NCBI RefSeq assembly: GCF_022846255.1
Contig: NZ_AP025682.1
Direction: 5' to 3' (one strand)
From: Escherichia coli
GTDB lineage: Bacteria; Pseudomonadota; Gammaproteobacteria; Enterobacterales; Enterobacteriaceae
Length of the DNA stretch: 64,000 nucleotides
Shown here: positions 138 to 54,628 of the stretch, piece by piece
How the letters are laid out: every line of letters starts with the position of its first letter
Position numbering within the stretch: position 1 is the first letter of the stretch
The notes under the pieces: model-generated
What the model saw: only the letters and a program-made list of their open reading frames with translations
Told to the model about the DNA's origin: nothing
Databases searched by the model: none
Position numbers and translations under genes: made by a program

Positions 138-3100
138 ATGATGGAAATTCTGCGTGGTTCGCCTGCATTGTCGGCATTCCGAATCAACAAACTGCTGGCA
201 CGTTTTCAGGCTGCCAGGCTCCTGGTTCACACTATTTACGCCGAGTATGTCCATTTTGCTGACCTCAATGCGCCGTTAAACGATGATGAGCACGCACAAC
301 TTGAACGCCTGCTGAAATATGGCCCGGCACTCGCCAGCCACGCCCCGCAAGGCAAACTCCTGCTGGTGACCCCGCGTCCTGGCACCATCTCTCCCTGGTC
401 TTCGAAAGCGACCGATATTGCCCATAACTGCGGGCTGCAACAGGTAAACCGCCTTGAGCGCGGCGTTGCTTACTATATAGAAGCCGGTACGCTGACCAAT
501 GAACAATGGCAGCAGGTTACCGCTGAACTGCACGACCGCATGATGGAAACGGTCTTTTTTGCTTTAGATGATGCAGAGCAGCTGTTTGCACACCATCAAC
601 CGACTCCGGTCACCAGCGTTGATTTGCTGGGGCAGGGCCGTCAGGCGCTAATCGACGCTAACCTGCGTCTTGGCCTGGCACTGGCGGAAGATGAAATTGA
701 CTATTTGCAGGATGCTTTCACAAAGCTTGGTCGTAACCCGAACGACATCGAACTGTATATGTTTGCCCAGGCGAACTCCGAGCACTGCCGCCACAAAATT
801 TTTAACGCCGACTGGGTTATCGATGGTGAACAGCAGCCGAAATCGCTATTTAAGATGATCAAAAACACCTTCGAAACCACGCCGGATCACGTTCTCTCTG
901 CTTATAAAGATAACGCCGCCGTAATGGAAGGTTCTGAAGTGGGCCGCTACTTTGCTGACCACGAAACGGGCCGCTACGATTTCCATCAGGAACCGGCGCA
1001 TATTCTGATGAAAGTCGAAACTCACAACCACCCGACGGCGATTTCTCCGTGGCCGGGCGCGGCGACCGGTTCCGGCGGTGAAATCCGCGATGAAGGTGCC
1101 ACCGGACGTGGCGCAAAGCCGAAAGCCGGTCTGGTTGGTTTCTCCGTATCCAACCTGCGAATTCCTGGCTTCGAACAGCCGTGGGAAGAAGATTTCGGTA
1201 AACCTGAGCGCATTGTTACCGCGCTGGACATCATGACCGAAGGCCCGCTGGGCGGTGCGGCGTTTAACAACGAATTTGGTCGTCCGGCACTGAACGGCTA
1301 CTTCCGTACTTATGAAGAAAAAGTGAACAGCCACAATGGCGAAGAGCTGCGCGGTTATCACAAACCGATCATGCTGGCGGGTGGGATCGGCAACATTCGC
1401 GCCGATCACGTACAAAAAGGCGAGATCAACGTTGGTGCGAAGCTGGTCGTTCTCGGCGGCCCGGCAATGAACATCGGTCTTGGCGGCGGCGCGGCGTCTT
1501 CCATGGCATCTGGTCAGTCTGATGCCGACCTCGACTTTGCTTCCGTACAGCGCGACAACCCGGAGATGGAGCGTCGCTGCCAGGAAGTGATCGACCGTTG
1601 CTGGCAGCTTGGTGATGCCAACCCAATCCTGTTTATCCACGACGTTGGCGCAGGCGGTCTTTCTAACGCCATGCCGGAACTGGTGAGCGACGGCGGGCGC
1701 GGCGGTAAATTTGAACTGCGCGATATCCTGAGCGACGAACCGGGCATGAGCCCGCTGGAAATCTGGTGTAACGAATCCCAGGAACGCTACGTGCTGGCGG
1801 TTGCTGCCGATCAGTTACCGCTGTTTGACGAACTGTGTAAGCGTGAGCGCGCACCCTACGCGGTGATTGGTGAAGCGACCGAAGAACTGCATCTTTCTTT
1901 GCACGATCGTCATTTTGATAATCAGCCGATTGATCTACCGCTGGACGTACTGCTTGGCAAAACGCCGAAGATGACCCGCGATGTACAAACGCTGAAAGCG
2001 AAAGGCGACGCGCTGGCCCGTGAAGGGATCACCATCGCTGACGCGGTGAAACGCGTGCTGCATCTGCCGACCGTGGCGGAGAAAACTTTCCTGGTGACCA
2101 TCGGTGACCGCAGCGTAACCGGCATGGTGGCGCGCGATCAGATGGTGGGGCCGTGGCAGGTGCCGGTCGCTAACTGCGCGGTCACTACCGCCAGCCTCGA
2201 CAGCTACTATGGCGAAGCGATGGCAATTGGCGAACGTGCGCCAGTTGCGCTGCTGGATTTCGCCGCTTCTGCCCGTCTGGCAGTCGGTGAAGCGCTAACC
2301 AACATCGCCGCAACACAAATTGGCGATATCAAACGCATTAAACTTTCCGCCAACTGGATGGCGGCGGCAGGCCACCCTGGTGAAGATGCTGGCCTGTATG
2401 AAGCCGTTAAAGCTGTGGGTGAAGAACTTTGTCCGGCGCTGGGCCTGACGATACCGGTGGGTAAAGACTCTATGTCGATGAAAACCCGCTGGCAGGAAGG
2501 TAACGAAGAGCGCGAAATGACGTCGCCGTTGTCGCTGGTGATTTCCGCATTTGCCCGCGTGGAAGATGTACGTCACACCATTACGCCGCAGCTTTCTACC
2601 GAAGATAACGCACTGTTGCTGATTGATTTGGGCAAAGGCAATAACGCGCTGGGCGCAACGGCACTGGCGCAGGTTTATCGTCAGCTTGGCGACAAACCGG
2701 CAGATGTACGCGATGTTGCCCAACTGAAAGGTTTCTATGACGCGATTCAGGCACTGGTTGCACAGCGTAAGCTGCTCGCGTACCACGACCGCTCTGACGG
2801 TGGCCTGCTGGTGACGCTGGCGGAAATGGCGTTTGCTGGTCATTGTGGCATTGACGCAGATATCGCCACTCTGGGTGACGATCGTCTGGCTGCATTGTTT
2901 AGCGAAGAACTGGGTGCGGTGATTCAGGTGCGAGCCGCTGACCGTGAAGCCGTTGAAGCGGTACTGGCACAGCATGGGCTTGCTGATTGCGTCCATTATG
3001 TTGGGCAGGCGGTTTCCGGTGACCGTTTTGTGATTACCGCCAACGGGCAGACTGTATTTAGCGAAAGCCGCACCACGTTGCGTGTCTGGTGGGCAGAAAC

Positions 3101-4025
3101 TACCTGGCAGATGCAGCGCCTGCGTGACAACCCGGAGTGTGCCGATCAGGAACATCAGGCGAAATCAAACGACGCCGATCCGGGCCTTAATGTGAAACTG
3201 TCGTTCGATATCAACGAAGATGTGGCAGCACCGTTTATTGCCACTGGCGCGCGTCCGAAAGTTGCTGTGCTGCGTGAGCAGGGCGTGAACTCCCATGTTG
3301 AAATGGCGGCAGCTTTCCACCGTGCAGGCTTCGATGCTATCGACGTGCATATGAGCGATCTGCTGGCTGGACGCACGGGCCTGGAGGGTTTCCACGCCCT
3401 GGTCGCGTGCGGTGGTTTTTCCTACGGTGATGTGCTGGGCGCTGGTGAAGGTTGGGCGAAGTCTATCCTGTTCAATGACCGTGTACGCGATGAGTTTGCA
3501 ACCTTCTTCCATCGTCCGCAAACGCTGGCGCTGGGGGTATGTAACGGTTGCCAGATGATGTCTAATCTGCGTGAACTGATCCCAGGTAGCGAGTTGTGGC
3601 CACGTTTTGTGCGTAACACCTCCGATCGCTTTGAAGCGCGTTTCAGTCTGGTAGAAGTAACCCAAAGCCCGTCGCTGCTGTTGCAGGGGATGGTGGGCTC
3701 GCAGATGCCGATTGCTGTCTCTCACGGTGAAGGGCGCGTTGAAGTGCGCGATGCGGCGCATCTGGCGGCACTGGAAAGCAAAGGGCTGGTGGCACTGCGC
3801 TATGTCGATAACTTCGGCAAAGTCACTGAAACCTACCCGGCTAACCCGAACGGTTCACCGAACGGTATTACGGCGGTCACGACTGAAAGTGGTCGAGTCA
3901 CCATTATGATGCCGCACCCGGAACGAGTTTTCCGTACTGTCAGCAACTCCTGGCATCCGGAAAACTGGGGCGAGGATGGCCCATGGATGCGCATTTTCCG
4001 CAATGCACGTAAGCAGTTGGGGTAA
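138..4025 (+). CDS. purL: phosphoribosylformylglycinamidine synthase (large single-chain FGAM synthase)
   Basis: 1295-aa ORF with N-terminal [20 protein letters not shown] and a C-terminal glutamine amidotransferase domain (GVCNGCQMM); full-length collinear match to enterobacterial PurL from memory. Confidence 0.97.
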
Positions 4026-4358: not shown

Positions 4359-4544
4359 AGTGGCTCATTCGCCGACTTATGTCAGCCCCTTCGGGACGTG
4401 CTACATAAAATTCGAATGACGCACAACAAGGTGCCTGCCGTCCAACTTCTGATATCAGCGTAGCTATATCAACCATCGGGCGAAACGTCGAGTTAGGCAC
4501 CGCCTTATTCCATAACAAAGCCGGGTAATTCCCGGCTTTGTTGT
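4359..4544 (+). ncRNA. glmY: GlmY small RNA (regulator of glmS via GlmZ/RapZ)
   Basis: Begins AGTGGCTCATTC..., about 185 nt, ends in AAAGCCGGG-taat-CCCGGCTTT hairpin plus U-run at 4518-4544; sits immediately upstream of glrK as in K-12; no credible ORF. Confidence 0.8.
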
Positions 4545-33742: not shown

Positions 33743-33853
33743 TAAAAAGAATTCAGAATCAGGCCGGAGTGCCAAACACTCCGTAAACACGGTCGTACAT
33801 CCAGCCGGTAGCCTGGTTCCTTGCATTGAGTGATGTACGGAGTTTATAGAGCA

Positions 33854-40332: not shown

Positions 40333-41109
40333 ATGTCCGAAACAAAAAACGAACTTGAAGACCTGCTGGAAAAAGCAGCAACCGAACCGGCTCACCGCCC
40401 GGCCTTTTTCCGTACTCTACTGGAATCCACCGTCTGGGTGCCTGGTACGGCGGCGCAGGGCGAGGCAGTAGTTGAAGATAGCGCGCTTGATTTACAGCAC
40501 TGGGAAAAAGAAGACGGCACCAGCGTCATTCCTTTTTTTACCTCGTTAGAAGCACTTCAACAGGCGGTTGAAGACGAACAGGCATTTGTCGTAATGCCCG
40601 TTCGCACATTGTTTGAGATGACCCTTGGCGAAACGCTCTTCCTTAATGCCAAACTGCCAACCGGTAAAGAGTTTATGCCGCGTGAAATCAGTTTGTTGAT
40701 TGGTGAAGAAGGGAATCCGCTGAGTAGCCAGGAAGTACTGGAAGGCGGTGAATCGCTGATATTATCGGAAGTCGCAGAGCTGCCAGCACAAATGATTGAT
40801 TCACTCACCACCTTATTTAAAACCATTAAGCCGGTGAAGCGTGCTTTTATTTGTTCAATTAAAGAGAACGAAGAGGCACAGCCTAATTTACTTATTGGCA
40901 TTGAAGCCGATGGTGATATCGAAGAAATTATTCAGGTGGCGGGAAGTGTAGCGACCGATACATTACCTGGCGATGAGCCCATCGATATTTGTCAGGTGAA
41001 AAAAGGGGAAAAAGGAATTAGCCACTTTATTACCGAACATATTGTGCCATTCTATGAACGTCGCTGGGGTGGTTTTTTGCGTGACTTTAAACAGAGTCGG
41101 ATAATCTAA
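40333..41109 (+). CDS. sseB: SseB (enhanced serine sensitivity protein B)
   Basis: 258 aa from ATG 40333 (MSETKNELEDLLEKAATEPAHRPAFF). Confidence 0.9.
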   Translation: MSETKNELEDLLEKAATEPAHRPAFFRTLLESTVWVPGTAAQGEAVVEDSALDLQHWEKEDGTSVIPFFTSLEALQQAVEDEQAFVVMPVRTLFEMTLGETLFLNAKLPTGKEFMPREISLLIGEEGNPLSSQEVLEGGESLILSEVAELPAQMIDSLTTLFKTIKPVKRAFICSIKENEEAQPNLLIGIEADGDIEEIIQVAGSVATDTLPGDEPIDICQVKKGEKGISHFITEHIVPFYERRWGGFLRDFKQSRII

Positions 41110-41420
41110 AATATGCCGCCCCAAAGGGCGGCATTCGGGCTTACTTGCTGCTCTGAAGTTTGTTAACCACCAGTAAATTGTCGCCGGAGAGACTCCGGTT
41201 ATTATTTACCTCGGTTAACAGCGCACCAGAAACAATAAGTACGATACAGAAGCACCGTATCTTCATTGTGCGGTCCATGCGAAGACCGCATCACGACAGC
41301 ACCACTGGCGATATTGCCGCGATAGCAAGCGCTGTGAAACACCTGCATTTACGGCCATGGAACATCCTTTCCTTAAGCCAGCGCCCGTTTGCGAGACGGC
41401 GGAAAGGGCCGGTGTCGATA
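41105..41420 (-). ncRNA. ryfA: RyfA-like transcript (about 310 nt; probably a small-protein mRNA, TimP/RyfA family)
   Basis: Minus-strand unit bounded by a 9-bp GC-rich hairpin (41113-41134) plus U-run at its 3' end and promoter-like elements near 41420-41461; position between sseB and sseA and size match enterobacterial ryfA; the 5' end is approximate. Confidence 0.55.
41141..41278 (-). CDS. candidate small hydrophobic peptide (TimP-like putative type I toxin), 45 aa, or 41 aa from the second ATG
   Basis: Minus-strand ORF MDRTMKIRCFCIVLIVSGALLTEVNNNRSLSGDNLLVVNKLQSSK inside the RyfA-like transcript; hydrophobic N-terminal segment then polar tail; weak Shine-Dalgarno; below the 60-aa cutoff of the supplied ORF track. 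Confidence 0.35.
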   Translation of the reverse strand: MDRTMKIRCFCIVLIVSGALLTEVNNNRSLSGDNLLVVNKLQSSK

Positions 41421-41489
41421 ATACGCTAAATAAACAATGATTGCTCTCTTTCGCTTGACAAAAAGAGAGTTACTGGCGAGTATTGCTTT

Positions 41490-41592
41490 GCTGTGAAGCA
41501 CCTGCGTTGCTCATGCAACACAAGCCAATCTGCTGGAAAGGCCGCGAACCAAACCAGCAACAAATAACCGCCTGATTTTGGCGGTTTTTTGT
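41490..41592 (+). ncRNA. candidate small RNA unit 1 (about 100 nt), divergent from the RyfA-like transcript; putative antitoxin (TimR/RyfB-like)
   Basis: TTGACA (41455-41460) - 17 bp - GAGTAT (41478-41483) promoter, then about 100 nt ending in AACCGCC-tgatttt-GGCGGTT hairpin plus TTTTTTGTTG; the 5' end (41490-41505, GCTGTGAAGCACCTGC) is complementary to the RyfA-like RNA; no ORF. Confidence 0.45.
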
Positions 41593-41767
41593 TGTTTAAA
41601 GAAAGTGAAATTACACGTTTAAGTAATATCTTTTACCAGTTAGTATTTTAATATTAAGCGGGATTTGTTTATATTTGTCTGAATTCGGACTGATAAGCCA
41701 AATGAATTCAAAATCTATCCTTTTTTATCTACTTGACATCGTTGATGCATAAAGCGAGTATTGAGTA

Positions 41768-41856
41768 GACGAGATACACTTGCAGTAATACAACCTGCTG
41801 GAAAGGCCGCGAACCAGACCAGCAATAAAAAACCGCCAAATTCGGCGGTTTTTTAT
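41768..41856 (+). ncRNA. candidate small RNA unit 2 (paralog of unit 1, about 90 nt); its terminator also serves convergent sseA
   Basis: Second TTGACA (41733-41738) - 17 bp - GAGTAT (41756-41761) promoter; 3' 60 nt (CTGCTGGAAAGGCCGCGAACCAGACCAGCAA...) near-identical to unit 1; ends in AAAACCGCC-aaattc-GGCGGTTTTTT bidirectional terminator directly after the sseA stop. Confidence 0.4.
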
Positions 41857-41870
41857 TGCCTGTAAAAAGC

Positions 41871-42716
41871 TTATTTTACGGGCTCAACCGGTAAATCTGC
41901 TCGTGCGCCCCATTCACTCCATGCGCCGTCGTACAGTTTCACGTTTGGCACATCAAGTGTCGCGAGTGCCAACAAAACCACGGCTGCCGTTACACCAGAG
42001 CCGCAGCTGACGATAATAGGTTTGTCATAACTTACGCCGCGACCAAAAAATATCGCATCCAGTTCATCGGTCGTTTTTAGTTCACCTTCGCGCACCAGTT
42101 CCGTCCACGGAACATTTAGTGCACCGGGAATATGTCCGCGACGTAAACCTGGGCGAGGTTCATCAACTTCTGCGTTAAAACGTGCAGCCGGGCGGGCATC
42201 GATAATTTGCGCCGTATTTTCATGGCTTGCCAATAACACATCGGTTACTTTCACCACGGCTTCAGGATTAAACGCGGCGTTAAACTCTCCTTCCGGCAGC
42301 TCTACTGCGCCTTCTTCTAATAGCAGATCATCACGCTGCCAGCCTGCAAGTCCACCACCCAGAATCGACACTTTCTCTACACCAAAGGTGCGCAGCATCC
42401 ACCATGCTCGTGGGGCTGAGAAAAGATTACCTTCGTCATAGACAATCAGGTGCTTATCCTGGTTAACGCCTAATTCACGCATCGCCACGGCGAACGTTTC
42501 CGGGCGCGGCAGCATGTGCGGAAGCGGGGAAGTGTGATCAGAAAGCGCTTCTATATCAAAAAACACTGCGCCGGGAATATGTCCATTCAGATACTCCTGA
42601 GCAACGTTACGATCTTCCTGTCCAGGCGACGCCATGCGGGCATCGATAATCTGAATTTCCGGGTCATCAATATGTTCGGCGAGCCAGTCGGCTCCTACAA
42701 ACCATGTCGTGGACAT
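41871..42716 (-). CDS. sseA: 3-mercaptopyruvate sulfurtransferase (tandem rhodanese domains)
   Basis: 281 aa from internal ATG 42716 (MSTTWFVGADWL); active-site CGSGVTA. Confidence 0.93.
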   Translation of the reverse strand: MSTTWFVGADWLAEHIDDPEIQIIDARMASPGQEDRNVAQEYLNGHIPGAVFFDIEALSDHTSPLPHMLPRPETFAVAMRELGVNQDKHLIVYDEGNLFSAPRAWWMLRTFGVEKVSILGGGLAGWQRDDLLLEEGAVELPEGEFNAAFNPEAVVKVTDVLLASHENTAQIIDARPAARFNAEVDEPRPGLRRGHIPGALNVPWTELVREGELKTTDELDAIFFGRGVSYDKPIIVSCGSGVTAAVVLLALATLDVPNVKLYDGAWSEWGARADLPVEPVK

Positions 42717-53399: not shown

Positions 53400-54518
53400 A
53401 TGCATAACCAGGCTCCAATTCAACGTAGAAAATCAACACGTATTTACGTTGGGAATGTGCCGATTGGCGATGGTGCTCCCATCGCCGTACAGTCCATGAC
53501 CAATACGCGTACGACAGACGTCGAAGCAACGGTCAATCAAATCAAGGCGCTGGAACGTGTTGGCGCTGATATCGTCCGTGTCTCCGTACCGACGATGGAC
53601 GCGGCAGAAGCGTTCAAACTCATCAAACAGCAGGTTAACGTGCCGCTGGTGGCTGACATCCACTTCGACTATCGCATTGCGCTGAAAGTAGCGGAATACG
53701 GCGTCGATTGTCTGCGTATTAACCCTGGCAATATCGGTAATGAAGAGCGTATTCGCATGGTGGTTGACTGTGCGCGCGATAAAAACATTCCGATCCGTAT
53801 TGGCGTTAATGCCGGATCGTTGGAAAAAGATCTGCAAGAAAAGTATGGCGAACCGACGCCGCAGGCGTTGCTGGAATCTGCCATGCGTCATGTTGATCAT
53901 CTCGATCGCCTGAACTTCGATCAGTTCAAAGTCAGCGTGAAAGCGTCTGACGTCTTCCTCGCTGTTGAGTCTTATCGTTTGCTGGCAAAACAAATCGATC
54001 AGCCGCTGCATCTGGGGATCACCGAAGCCGGTGGTGCGCGTAGCGGGGCAGTAAAATCCGCTATTGGTTTAGGTCTGCTGCTGTCTGAAGGCATCGGCGA
54101 CACGCTGCGCGTATCGCTGGCGGCCGATCCGGTCGAAGAGATCAAAGTCGGTTTCGATATTTTGAAATCGCTGCGTATCCGTTCGCGCGGGATCAACTTC
54201 ATCGCCTGCCCGACCTGTTCGCGTCAGGAATTTGATGTTATCGGTACGGTTAACGCGCTGGAGCAACGCCTGGAAGATATCATCACTCCGATGGACGTTT
54301 CGATTATCGGCTGCGTGGTGAATGGCCCTGGTGAGGCGCTGGTTTCTACACTCGGCGTCACTGGCGGCAACAAGAAAAGCGGCCTCTATGAAGATGGCGT
54401 GCGCAAAGACCGTCTGGACAACAACGATATGATCGATCAGCTGGAAGCGCGCATTCGTGCGAAAGCCAGTCAGCTGGACGAAGCGCGTCGAATTGACGTT
54501 CAGCAGGTTGAAAAATAA
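53400..54518 (+). CDS. ispG: 4-hydroxy-3-methylbut-2-enyl diphosphate synthase (IspG/GcpE)
   Basis: 372 aa; [4Fe-4S] ligands in [12 protein letters not shown] and GCVVNGPGE. Confidence 0.96.
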
Positions 54519-54628
54519 TAACGTGATGGGAAGCGCCTCGCTTCCCGTGTATGATTGAACCCGCATGGCTCCCGAAACATTGAGGGAAGCGTTGAGGGTT
54601 CATTTTTATATTCAGAAAGAGAATAAAC

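Follow-up and report, generated by a model that had tools for sequence, protein, structure and literature searches.

The interval between sseB and sseA in Escherichia coli raises the question of why a single toxin gene should be accompanied by two small RNA (sRNA) genes of one antitoxin family. In the 64,000-nucleotide (64-kb) stretch of the E. coli contig NZ_AP025682.1 analyzed here (referred to as the window), this interval, part of an E. coli/Shigella-type locus, holds timP (ryfA) on the minus strand together with two plus-strand units located at 41490..41592 (unit 1) and 41768..41856 (unit 2). We consider it highly probable that the region represents the antitoxin side of a timP/timR (ryfA/ryfB) type I locus, in which unit 1 is the cognate TimR and unit 2 is an orphan paralogue carrying a different pairing code, named gamma below.

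Family membership and architecture of the two units

The RNA historically annotated as the sRNA RyfA is the mRNA of the toxin TimP, and in Salmonella the divergent sRNA TimR (formerly STnc2070) pairs via its 5' end with the 5' untranslated region (5'UTR) of timP (PMC7667032, PMC11228461). In the window, Rfam RF00126 (ryfA) matched at full length at 41412..41108 on the minus strand with 311.7 bits against a gathering score of 80, placing the toxin transcript at 41108..41412. An open reading frame (ORF) search found a frame of 41 amino acids (MKIRCFCIVLIVSGALLTEVNNNRSLSGDNLLVVNKLQSSK) within it at 41141..41266 (−), and the encoded protein matched NCBIfam NF040796 (toxic_TimP) with 83.8 bits against a cut-off of 45. 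By these profile matches the partner mRNA encodes a member of the small toxic membrane protein family TimP, as in toxin–antitoxin loci of type I. Homologous loci in RefSeq E. coli carry the timP annotation, and hardly any E. coli genome lacks it at this position. The pepB gene of the window shares 95–99% identity with pepB in nearly all of the 5,425 E. coli genomes matched, which places the window in the E. coli/Shigella lineage. Unit 1 starts about 78 nucleotides (nt) from the 5' end of ryfA on the opposite strand, which is the divergent upstream position of TimR.

The TimR comparison set was drawn from 15 enterobacterial loci in which ryfA was located. The scan of genome contigs used the ryfA pattern GCGGTCNNNGCANNGACCGCAC, which was too GC-rich, and the enterobacterial loci represent 15 of the 120 matches listed, these being mostly chance matches in high-GC genomes. 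All 15 loci possess, upstream of ryfA and on the opposite strand, a TTGACA-N17 promoter, a short 5' region, stem-loops 1 and 2 (SL1 and SL2) and a terminator, with an SL2 motif that reads GCUGGAAAGGCCGC-NAACC-NGACCAGC. A covariance model (R1) was built from eight TimRs, all of them from outside Escherichia (Citrobacter, Superficieibacter, Yersinia, Rahnella and Erwinia). Its match to unit 1 (41490-41591) scored 73.2 bits with E 7e-15, and that to unit 2 (41768-41855) 67.2 bits with E 1.7e-13, eight positions of the SL1 apex being absent from the latter. No further plus-strand match was found in the 64 kb, the only other hits being weak minus-strand echoes of the palindromic terminators. The transcript coordinates given in a first-pass annotation of this DNA (41490-41592 and 41768-41856) agree with the model matches to within 1 nt. 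Because a model from other genera matches exactly these two places, both units belong to the TimR/RyfB family, as antitoxin sRNA genes of the type I locus timP (ryfA).

No Rfam family covered the units at threshold in an Rfam search, and TimR also has no RefSeq annotation, which makes it invisible to routine annotation. The candidates returned by the search (the rimP leader, AgrB, RNAI and leader peptides) were sub-threshold and terminator-driven. Among them, AgrB (RF02891), the antitoxin of dinQ, aligned with unit 2 (41776-41857, +) at 28.8 bits, below its gathering score of 40 (E 0.007), a probably terminator-driven match that is no evidence of relationship.

The identical TTGACA-N17-GAGTAT promoters that had been claimed for both units were read directly at 41455..41483 (+; TTGACA 41455-41460, 17-nt spacer, GAGTAT 41478-41483) and at 41733..41761 (+; TTGACA 41733-41738, 17-nt spacer, GAGTAT 41756-41761). 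A consensus promoter/terminator scanner missed both promoters and the unit 2 terminator owing to its thresholds, the promoters being unlisted because GAGTAT agrees with TATAAT at only three of six positions. The same −35, spacer and −10 elements occupy the matching position in the TimR genes of Citrobacter, Yersinia, Rahnella and Erwinia. Each unit therefore has the motifs of a sigma-70 promoter of its own at a position conserved across genera, with the transcripts known from relatives only.

The 3' modules, annotated as near-identical, form an ungapped 64-nt direct repeat (41526-41589 and 41791-41854) with 83% identity, in which CTGCTGGAAAGGCCGCGAACCA is the same in both units. The 16-mer GGAAAGGCCGCGAACC of the SL2 loop occurs only twice in the 64 kb, once in each unit, with 0.07 occurrences expected by chance. 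Fold prediction gave both units a UGCUGG/CCAGCA hairpin enclosing a 17-nt loop and followed by the terminator (fold z-scores of −3.5 and −5.1 for the two units), and the intrinsic terminators keep their stems (core CCGCC/GGCGG in both) with different loops (UGAUUUU versus AAAUUC), as had been proposed. Unit 1 consists of a seed (about 41490-41508), SL1 (41506-41519), SL2 (41531-41559) and a terminator (41560-41592), whereas unit 2 possesses a seed (41768-41784; GACGAGAUACACUUGCA), no SL1, SL2 (41796-41824) and a bidirectional terminator (41825-41856). Promoters, repeat and covariance model thus bear out the view of two paralogous sRNA genes, each with a promoter and a terminator.

Alignment of 17 sequences supports SL1, where two pairs show compensatory changes (GC to AU and AU to GC), and likewise the terminator, at two pairs; 97% of cells were paired versus at most 51% with the partners slid by 1–3 columns. 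From Escherichia to Yersinia, Rahnella and Erwinia, SL2 hardly varies in its core (GCUGG/CCAGC plus the inner GG/CC pairs) or over most of the loop, and it shows zero compensatory change (alignment A3 columns 43-72); judged from these sequences, the constraint on SL2 is one that acts on the sequence itself. The SL2 loop resembles the antisense of the ryfA 5' end and was considered as a second contact with timP mRNA, a candidate that we rejected given that its best duplexes were no better than shuffles and the sites differ among species.

Pairing specificity of the two units

The first ~17 nt of each TimR are the complement of a variable stretch in its own timP 5'UTR, and both change together across species, the seed being complementary to its own timP variable region in each of 10 distinct pairs, from different species or strains. 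When 24-nt TimR seeds were crossed with 130-nt timP 5'UTRs, own-partner energies ranged from −32 to −43 kcal/mol for single-TimR loci, versus non-cognate medians of −13 to −26. Within E. coli we found four seed codes (named alpha, beta, gamma and delta) and one beta variant. In this variant, carried by E. coli NS-NP030 (locus L134), timP target and TimR seed share one G-to-A change (GACGCGC to GACGCAC), representing a compensatory pair within one species.

The resident timP toxin of the window is of the alpha type. The TimR target site, the variable "specificity" region of its 5'UTR (AAUGCAGGUGUUUCACAGCG; 41330..41349, −), was located by its duplex with the unit 1 5' domain, and this domain is predicted to pair with the resident timP 5'UTR at −49.7 kcal/mol compared with −31.0 ± 3.2 for shuffles, none of 300 being as good. 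Unit 1, as an alpha-type TimR transcribed divergently from timP, would pair through its 5' end with the variable region, and, by analogy with Salmonella TimR, this pairing would prevent formation of the pseudoknot needed for TimP translation. By contrast, unit 2 reached only −19.5 kcal/mol with the resident timP (shuffles −20.2 ± 2.8, 173 of 300 as good), and its 24-nt seed gave −16.0 kcal/mol with the resident alpha target. Over 17 nt, the unit 2 seed is instead perfectly complementary to the gamma timP 5'UTR allele of strain LR-28, whose gamma toxin is its best pairing partner (−31.0 to −34.5 kcal/mol). Because its seed pairs with the resident target no better than shuffles do, yet matches the gamma allele, unit 2, a family member by descent and architecture, is by these duplex predictions not a functional partner of the resident toxin. 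The earlier observation of a likeness to the ryfA 5' region in unit 1 only holds, unit 1 being the partner of ryfA and unit 2 having no match to the resident ryfA. The accompanying proposal that unit 2 is aimed at a different RNA or is a decaying duplicate does not stand as worded: neither an unrelated target nor random decay accounts for a seed exactly complementary to a different timP allele that occurs in nature.

Given that SL2 and the terminator are common to both units and that the 3' half of the unit 2 seed (ACACUUGC) is able to pair with the alpha target, unit 2 might act as a back-up repressor of the resident alpha timP via partial seed pairing and the shared 3' module. However, the pairing is indistinguishable from that of shuffles in the energies above, and the SL2 loop shows no consistent complementarity to timP mRNA. 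Moreover, discrimination is already seen between the Shigella dysenteriae siblings RyfB1 and RyfB2, in which the longest run of differences is a variable region of 5 nt: RyfB1 lowers RyfA1 and not RyfA2 (PMC5333039). We regard a back-up role as scarcely tenable.

Distribution and origin of TimR-gamma

The population distribution was counted directly over 5,426 complete E. coli genomes, the counts being lower bounds because megablast requires an exact 28-nt seed. There were 5,603 copies of ryfA bodies in 5,425 genomes, every copy found being chromosomal, with one toxin copy in 97% of genomes and two tandem copies in ~3%. TimR-gamma (promoter plus seed) was present in 394 genomes, in 238 of which the 68 nt of promoter and seed were 100% identical, and the gamma toxin target in 39 genomes; ~90% of TimR-gamma genes in complete E. 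coli genomes are orphans. The corresponding numbers for TimR and toxin target were 2,096 and 1,969 genomes for alpha, and 4,543 and at least 1,093 for beta, with the beta toxin count of 1,093 being a known underestimate because one common single-nucleotide polymorphism leaves no 28-nt seed in the 47-nt query.

Architectures were taken from 17 E. coli loci read individually. Single matched modules of the alpha, beta, beta-variant and delta types were seen, as were full tandems (alpha + beta and alpha + delta) in the order timP-TimR, spacer, sseB 3' fragment, timP-TimR. Loci with one toxin and two TimRs comprised a matched beta module plus TimR-gamma (four strains), a matched beta module plus TimR-alpha, the K-12 type (alpha toxin, proximal beta, distal alpha) and the LR-28 type (gamma toxin, proximal alpha-like, distal gamma). 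TimR-gamma occupied the sseA-proximal slot in six of six sampled genomes and in the window, whatever the resident module (alpha, beta or gamma), and its junction to the spacer was identical wherever readable. The sampled Escherichia loci hold 19 toxin genes, of which 18 have a matching TimR in the same locus, the 19th (06-00048) being a promoterless fusion, and TimRs without a matching toxin were frequent there. Orphan or mismatched TimR copies are thus common in E. coli, K-12 included. Compared at the sequence level, the parts that make up the window's own combination also occur elsewhere: the TimR 5' domain and timP target stretch of its proximal module are those of FDAARGOS_497, and the best match to its 901-nt region among complete E. 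coli genomes was 95%.

Unit 2 shares the intergenic region with timP but is separated from it by unit 1 and the spacer, and its slot is that of the second module in tandem strains. The inter-unit spacer aligns with the inter-module spacer of the tandem strain FDAARGOS_497 and with that of MG1655. The Rfam model IS128 (RF00125) matched here above its gathering threshold (41548..41724, −; 164.8 bits), and the matched region consists of the inter-module spacer together with the reverse complement of the unit 1 terminator (3' end). In K-12, IS128 starts with the promoter and the stub that a deleted second timP has left; this part is missing from the window, where 3 nt take the place of 33 model positions. 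Strand-specific probes did not detect the IS128 RNA itself in K-12, and it was considered a probable artefact (PMC3175480). MG1655 has lost its second toxin through a clean deletion that begins in the sseB' fragment and reaches to within about 14 nt of the timP 5' end. We infer a similar course for the window, in which a second full timPR module would once have occupied the slot beside sseA, as in tandem strains, and its toxin would have been lost in this lineage through a different deletion, ending just upstream of the unit 2 −35 box. The remnant would then be an antitoxin gene with intact promoter, seed, SL2 and terminator and no matching target in the locus. In this reconstruction from sequence, the simplest reading is that unit 2 represents the leftover of a second timPR module after toxin loss. 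An origin of the gamma toxin allele by gene conversion from TimR-gamma was also considered and is unsupported, the identical tract being just 17 nt with no flanking homology.

A rival explanation is that unit 2 is a silent, decaying pseudogene in which only the terminator is selected, as the terminator of the convergent sseA. A perfect bidirectional terminator hairpin 15 nt from the sseA stop codon and the loss of the SL1 hairpin would fit such decay, and the locus is prone to decay elsewhere through seed-mediated fusions and IS insertions. However, we found no disabling change in the −35 box, 17-nt spacer, −10 box or 17-nt seed of unit 2, and the 39 genomes with gamma as sole toxin rely on the same SL1-less copy as their sole matching antitoxin. 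In addition, the orphan beta copy of K-12 is demonstrably transcribed, and we judge the pseudogene explanation very improbable. The suggestion that the repeats are only duplicates of a terminator like repetitive extragenic palindromic elements, without promoters, likewise found no support, given that the promoter position is conserved in every genus examined and that a K-12 copy of the same architecture has been detected. By analogy with that copy, unit 2 is probably still transcribed as an orphan TimR.

Decay elsewhere was seen in several forms. In four loci, from E. coli 06-00048 (L136, about 1772-1900), Citrobacter amalonaticus (L081), Yersinia similis (L072) and Yersinia aleksiciae (L117), the timP body is fused at the target-site/seed repeat to the SL1, SL2 and terminator of TimR, with loss of the timP 5' end and of both promoters. 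Since toxin target and antitoxin seed are direct repeats in the DNA, deletion between them is an apparently recurrent inactivation of the whole locus. In the Y. similis locus, an Rfam Ysr224 match (4361-4467, 133.9 bits) lies directly beside the fused timP/TimR remnant, and the TimR terminator is apparently split by an insertion flanked by repeats of AACCGCCTTTATGGCGGTTT. In E. coli MSB1_4I (L128, about 2648-3400), IS1 is inserted in the −35 box of TimR-gamma, and the sole toxin of the strain is of the gamma type; either a hybrid promoter suffices or full TimP repression is dispensable.

Another explanation holds that unit 2 has ceased to be an antitoxin and, after co-option, regulates unrelated mRNAs in trans, or that it provides "immunity" tolerating a gamma-type timP gained by recombination. 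The intact promoter, seed, SL2 and terminator and the identical copy in 238 genomes speak for it, as do the "swapped" loci of the K-12 and LR-28 types, where the resident toxin matches the distal TimR as expected from orphan-tolerated allele replacement. In avian pathogenic E. coli (APEC), moreover, ryfA-deletion phenotypes disappear upon additional timR deletion. By contrast, a target search with the unit 2 seed in the 64-kb window yielded no candidate, the sole match besides the gene's own opposite strand having three mismatches and being at chance level. Within-species conservation is also no demonstration of selection, and the IS1 insertion described above disrupts the TimR-gamma −35 box in a gamma-toxin strain. 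On balance we find co-option or immunity improbable. Also unlikely is a broader proposal that the sseB-sseA interval holds a TimR repertoire of at least four mutually discriminating codes outnumbering the toxins, with the orphans maintained as immunity permitting or policing timP allele replacement or as free regulators of other mRNAs. If this were true, a free-regulator role would fit the TimR-dependent ryfA-deletion phenotypes of APEC, and the invariance of the SL2 loop would mark a binding partner common to all copies.

Several points weigh against our preferred reading of unit 2 as an orphan gamma-code antitoxin gene left by a second module. The sample contained no intact adjacent timP-gamma/TimR-gamma module, which makes the deletion history a reconstruction, and complete E. 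coli genomes yielded no instance of an alpha toxin combined with alpha and gamma TimRs. Unit 2 lacks SL1 (a 13-nt gap relative to unit 1 in pairwise alignment), which is present in every other aligned family member, and this absence could mean reduced function. Near-identity of unit 2 across strains is no proof of purifying selection, E. coli diversity being too low. Finally, orphan status was judged within the 64-kb window, and a gamma-type timP or another target elsewhere is possible, although all ryfA copies found in E. coli were chromosomal and 97% of genomes have just one. With these points taken into account, unit 2 is most likely without a cognate target in this genome.

Among the remaining features, a probable −10 box of the timP promoter (TATTAT, 41418..41423, −), read from the sequence, is placed 5 nt upstream of the Rfam-defined 5' end. 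The sseA gene (3-mercaptopyruvate sulfurtransferase; ORF at 41871..42716, −, with its start set by homologues annotated at 846 nt in RefSeq) is convergent with unit 2, whose terminator is a near-perfect 19-nt palindrome (AAAAAACCGCC...GGCGGTTTTTT) that lies 15 nt from the sseA stop codon and probably serves both genes. Other Rfam matches in the window, all on the plus strand, were GlmY (4359-4506), the iscR stability element (33743-33852) and SroE (54518-54609), in what we take to be the usual E. coli gene order.

Comparison with known type I systems

The two units are members of a known antitoxin family rather than RNAs of a new kind, and for the second a natural target allele can be identified. 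What is added here is the seed classes and the commonness of orphan or mismatched TimR copies in E. coli; the terms "orphan", "copies" and "cognate" are unmentioned in two later timPR papers, and second copies or paralogues are unmentioned in the APEC paper. In E. coli, a TimR adjoining a timP gene does not always match it: in K-12 the perfect match is the distal copy, while the distal copy of the window matches no resident toxin. Because the neighbouring TimR is not always the cognate one, studies based on position-defined "timR" or "ryfA" deletions could be misread. The locus also represents a compact natural example of how changes of a few nucleotides in the seed create separate toxin/antitoxin specificity classes, and it exemplifies the readier loss of toxins than of antitoxins.

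TimR of Salmonella Typhimurium resembles unit 1 in being divergent from timP/ryfA, in its length of ~100 nt, in its intrinsic terminator and in a 5' end complementary to a timP 5'UTR site located more than 60 nt upstream of the ribosome-binding site (PMC7667032, PMC11228461, PMC13000454). This likeness is one of described features, the sequence comparison having been made with the TimRs that lie upstream of ryfA in five other genera. Salmonella TimR blocks timP translation by destabilising a pseudoknot and inhibits this translation in a purified cell-free system (PMC7667032, PMC11228461). The first-pass annotation had suggested that the 3' module could be a binding platform for Hfq or another protein, and both this cell-free activity and the sequence-level conservation of the module across genera bear on that suggestion. 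Because such a system is taken to lack Hfq, a chaperone appears, by analogy, unneeded for the core activity of TimR, and unit 1 pairs with its timP target in a long, near-perfect duplex, unlike the limited imperfect pairing of Hfq-dependent trans-acting sRNAs. One TimR per timP has been described in Salmonella, whereas the window has a second TimR with another seed and no SL1, located 278 nt downstream and without a toxin of its own.

S. dysenteriae carries tandem ryfA1/ryfB1 and ryfA2/ryfB2 genes, with RyfB1 and RyfB2 being ~60% identical and both seen as ~100-nt transcripts (PMC5333039). Two paralogous sRNAs of ~100 nt between sseB and sseA with seed-level specificity are therefore common to this species and the window, but S. 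dysenteriae has one RyfA per RyfB and the window has a single ryfA with two RyfB-type genes.

In K-12, ECS011/IS129 was detected by deep sequencing and by strand-specific, seed-specific northern blotting as RNAs of ~95 and ~100 nt (PMC3175480). The published ECS011 sequence is that of the K-12 proximal TimR, of the beta type, with the RNA starting 6–7 nt after GAGTAT. This copy pairs weakly with the resident alpha toxin (−25.4 kcal/mol versus −35.8 kcal/mol for the distal copy). It resembles both units of the window in promoter architecture, SL2 and terminator and, as with unit 2, it is not the best match for the resident toxin; its transcription from the same architecture argues against promoterless terminator duplicates. 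By contrast, its seed is beta while those of the window are alpha and gamma, and it was described as the antisense partner of IS128 rather than as an antitoxin. In the MG1655p locus (L127), the beta TimR adjoins timP (about 1581-1680) and the fully complementary alpha TimR is distal, beside sseA (about 1903-2005), and follows a ~14-nt stub left by the deleted second timP. Judging from identity bands, the K-12 arrangement would be found in about 1,650 complete E. coli genomes. Expression of the distal TimR was not found in the supplements of PMC3175480. C0614 lies just upstream of this distal copy on the same strand, its mapping being imprecise.

Tandem paralogous antitoxin sRNAs whose specificity is set by short seed differences also occur in other type I loci of E. 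coli, namely agrA/agrB-dinQ, zorO-orzO/zorP-orzP and Sib/Ibs. Their sequences are unrelated to the TimR units, and the likeness is one of arrangement; at dinQ, only agrB of the two adjacent sRNAs represses the toxin.

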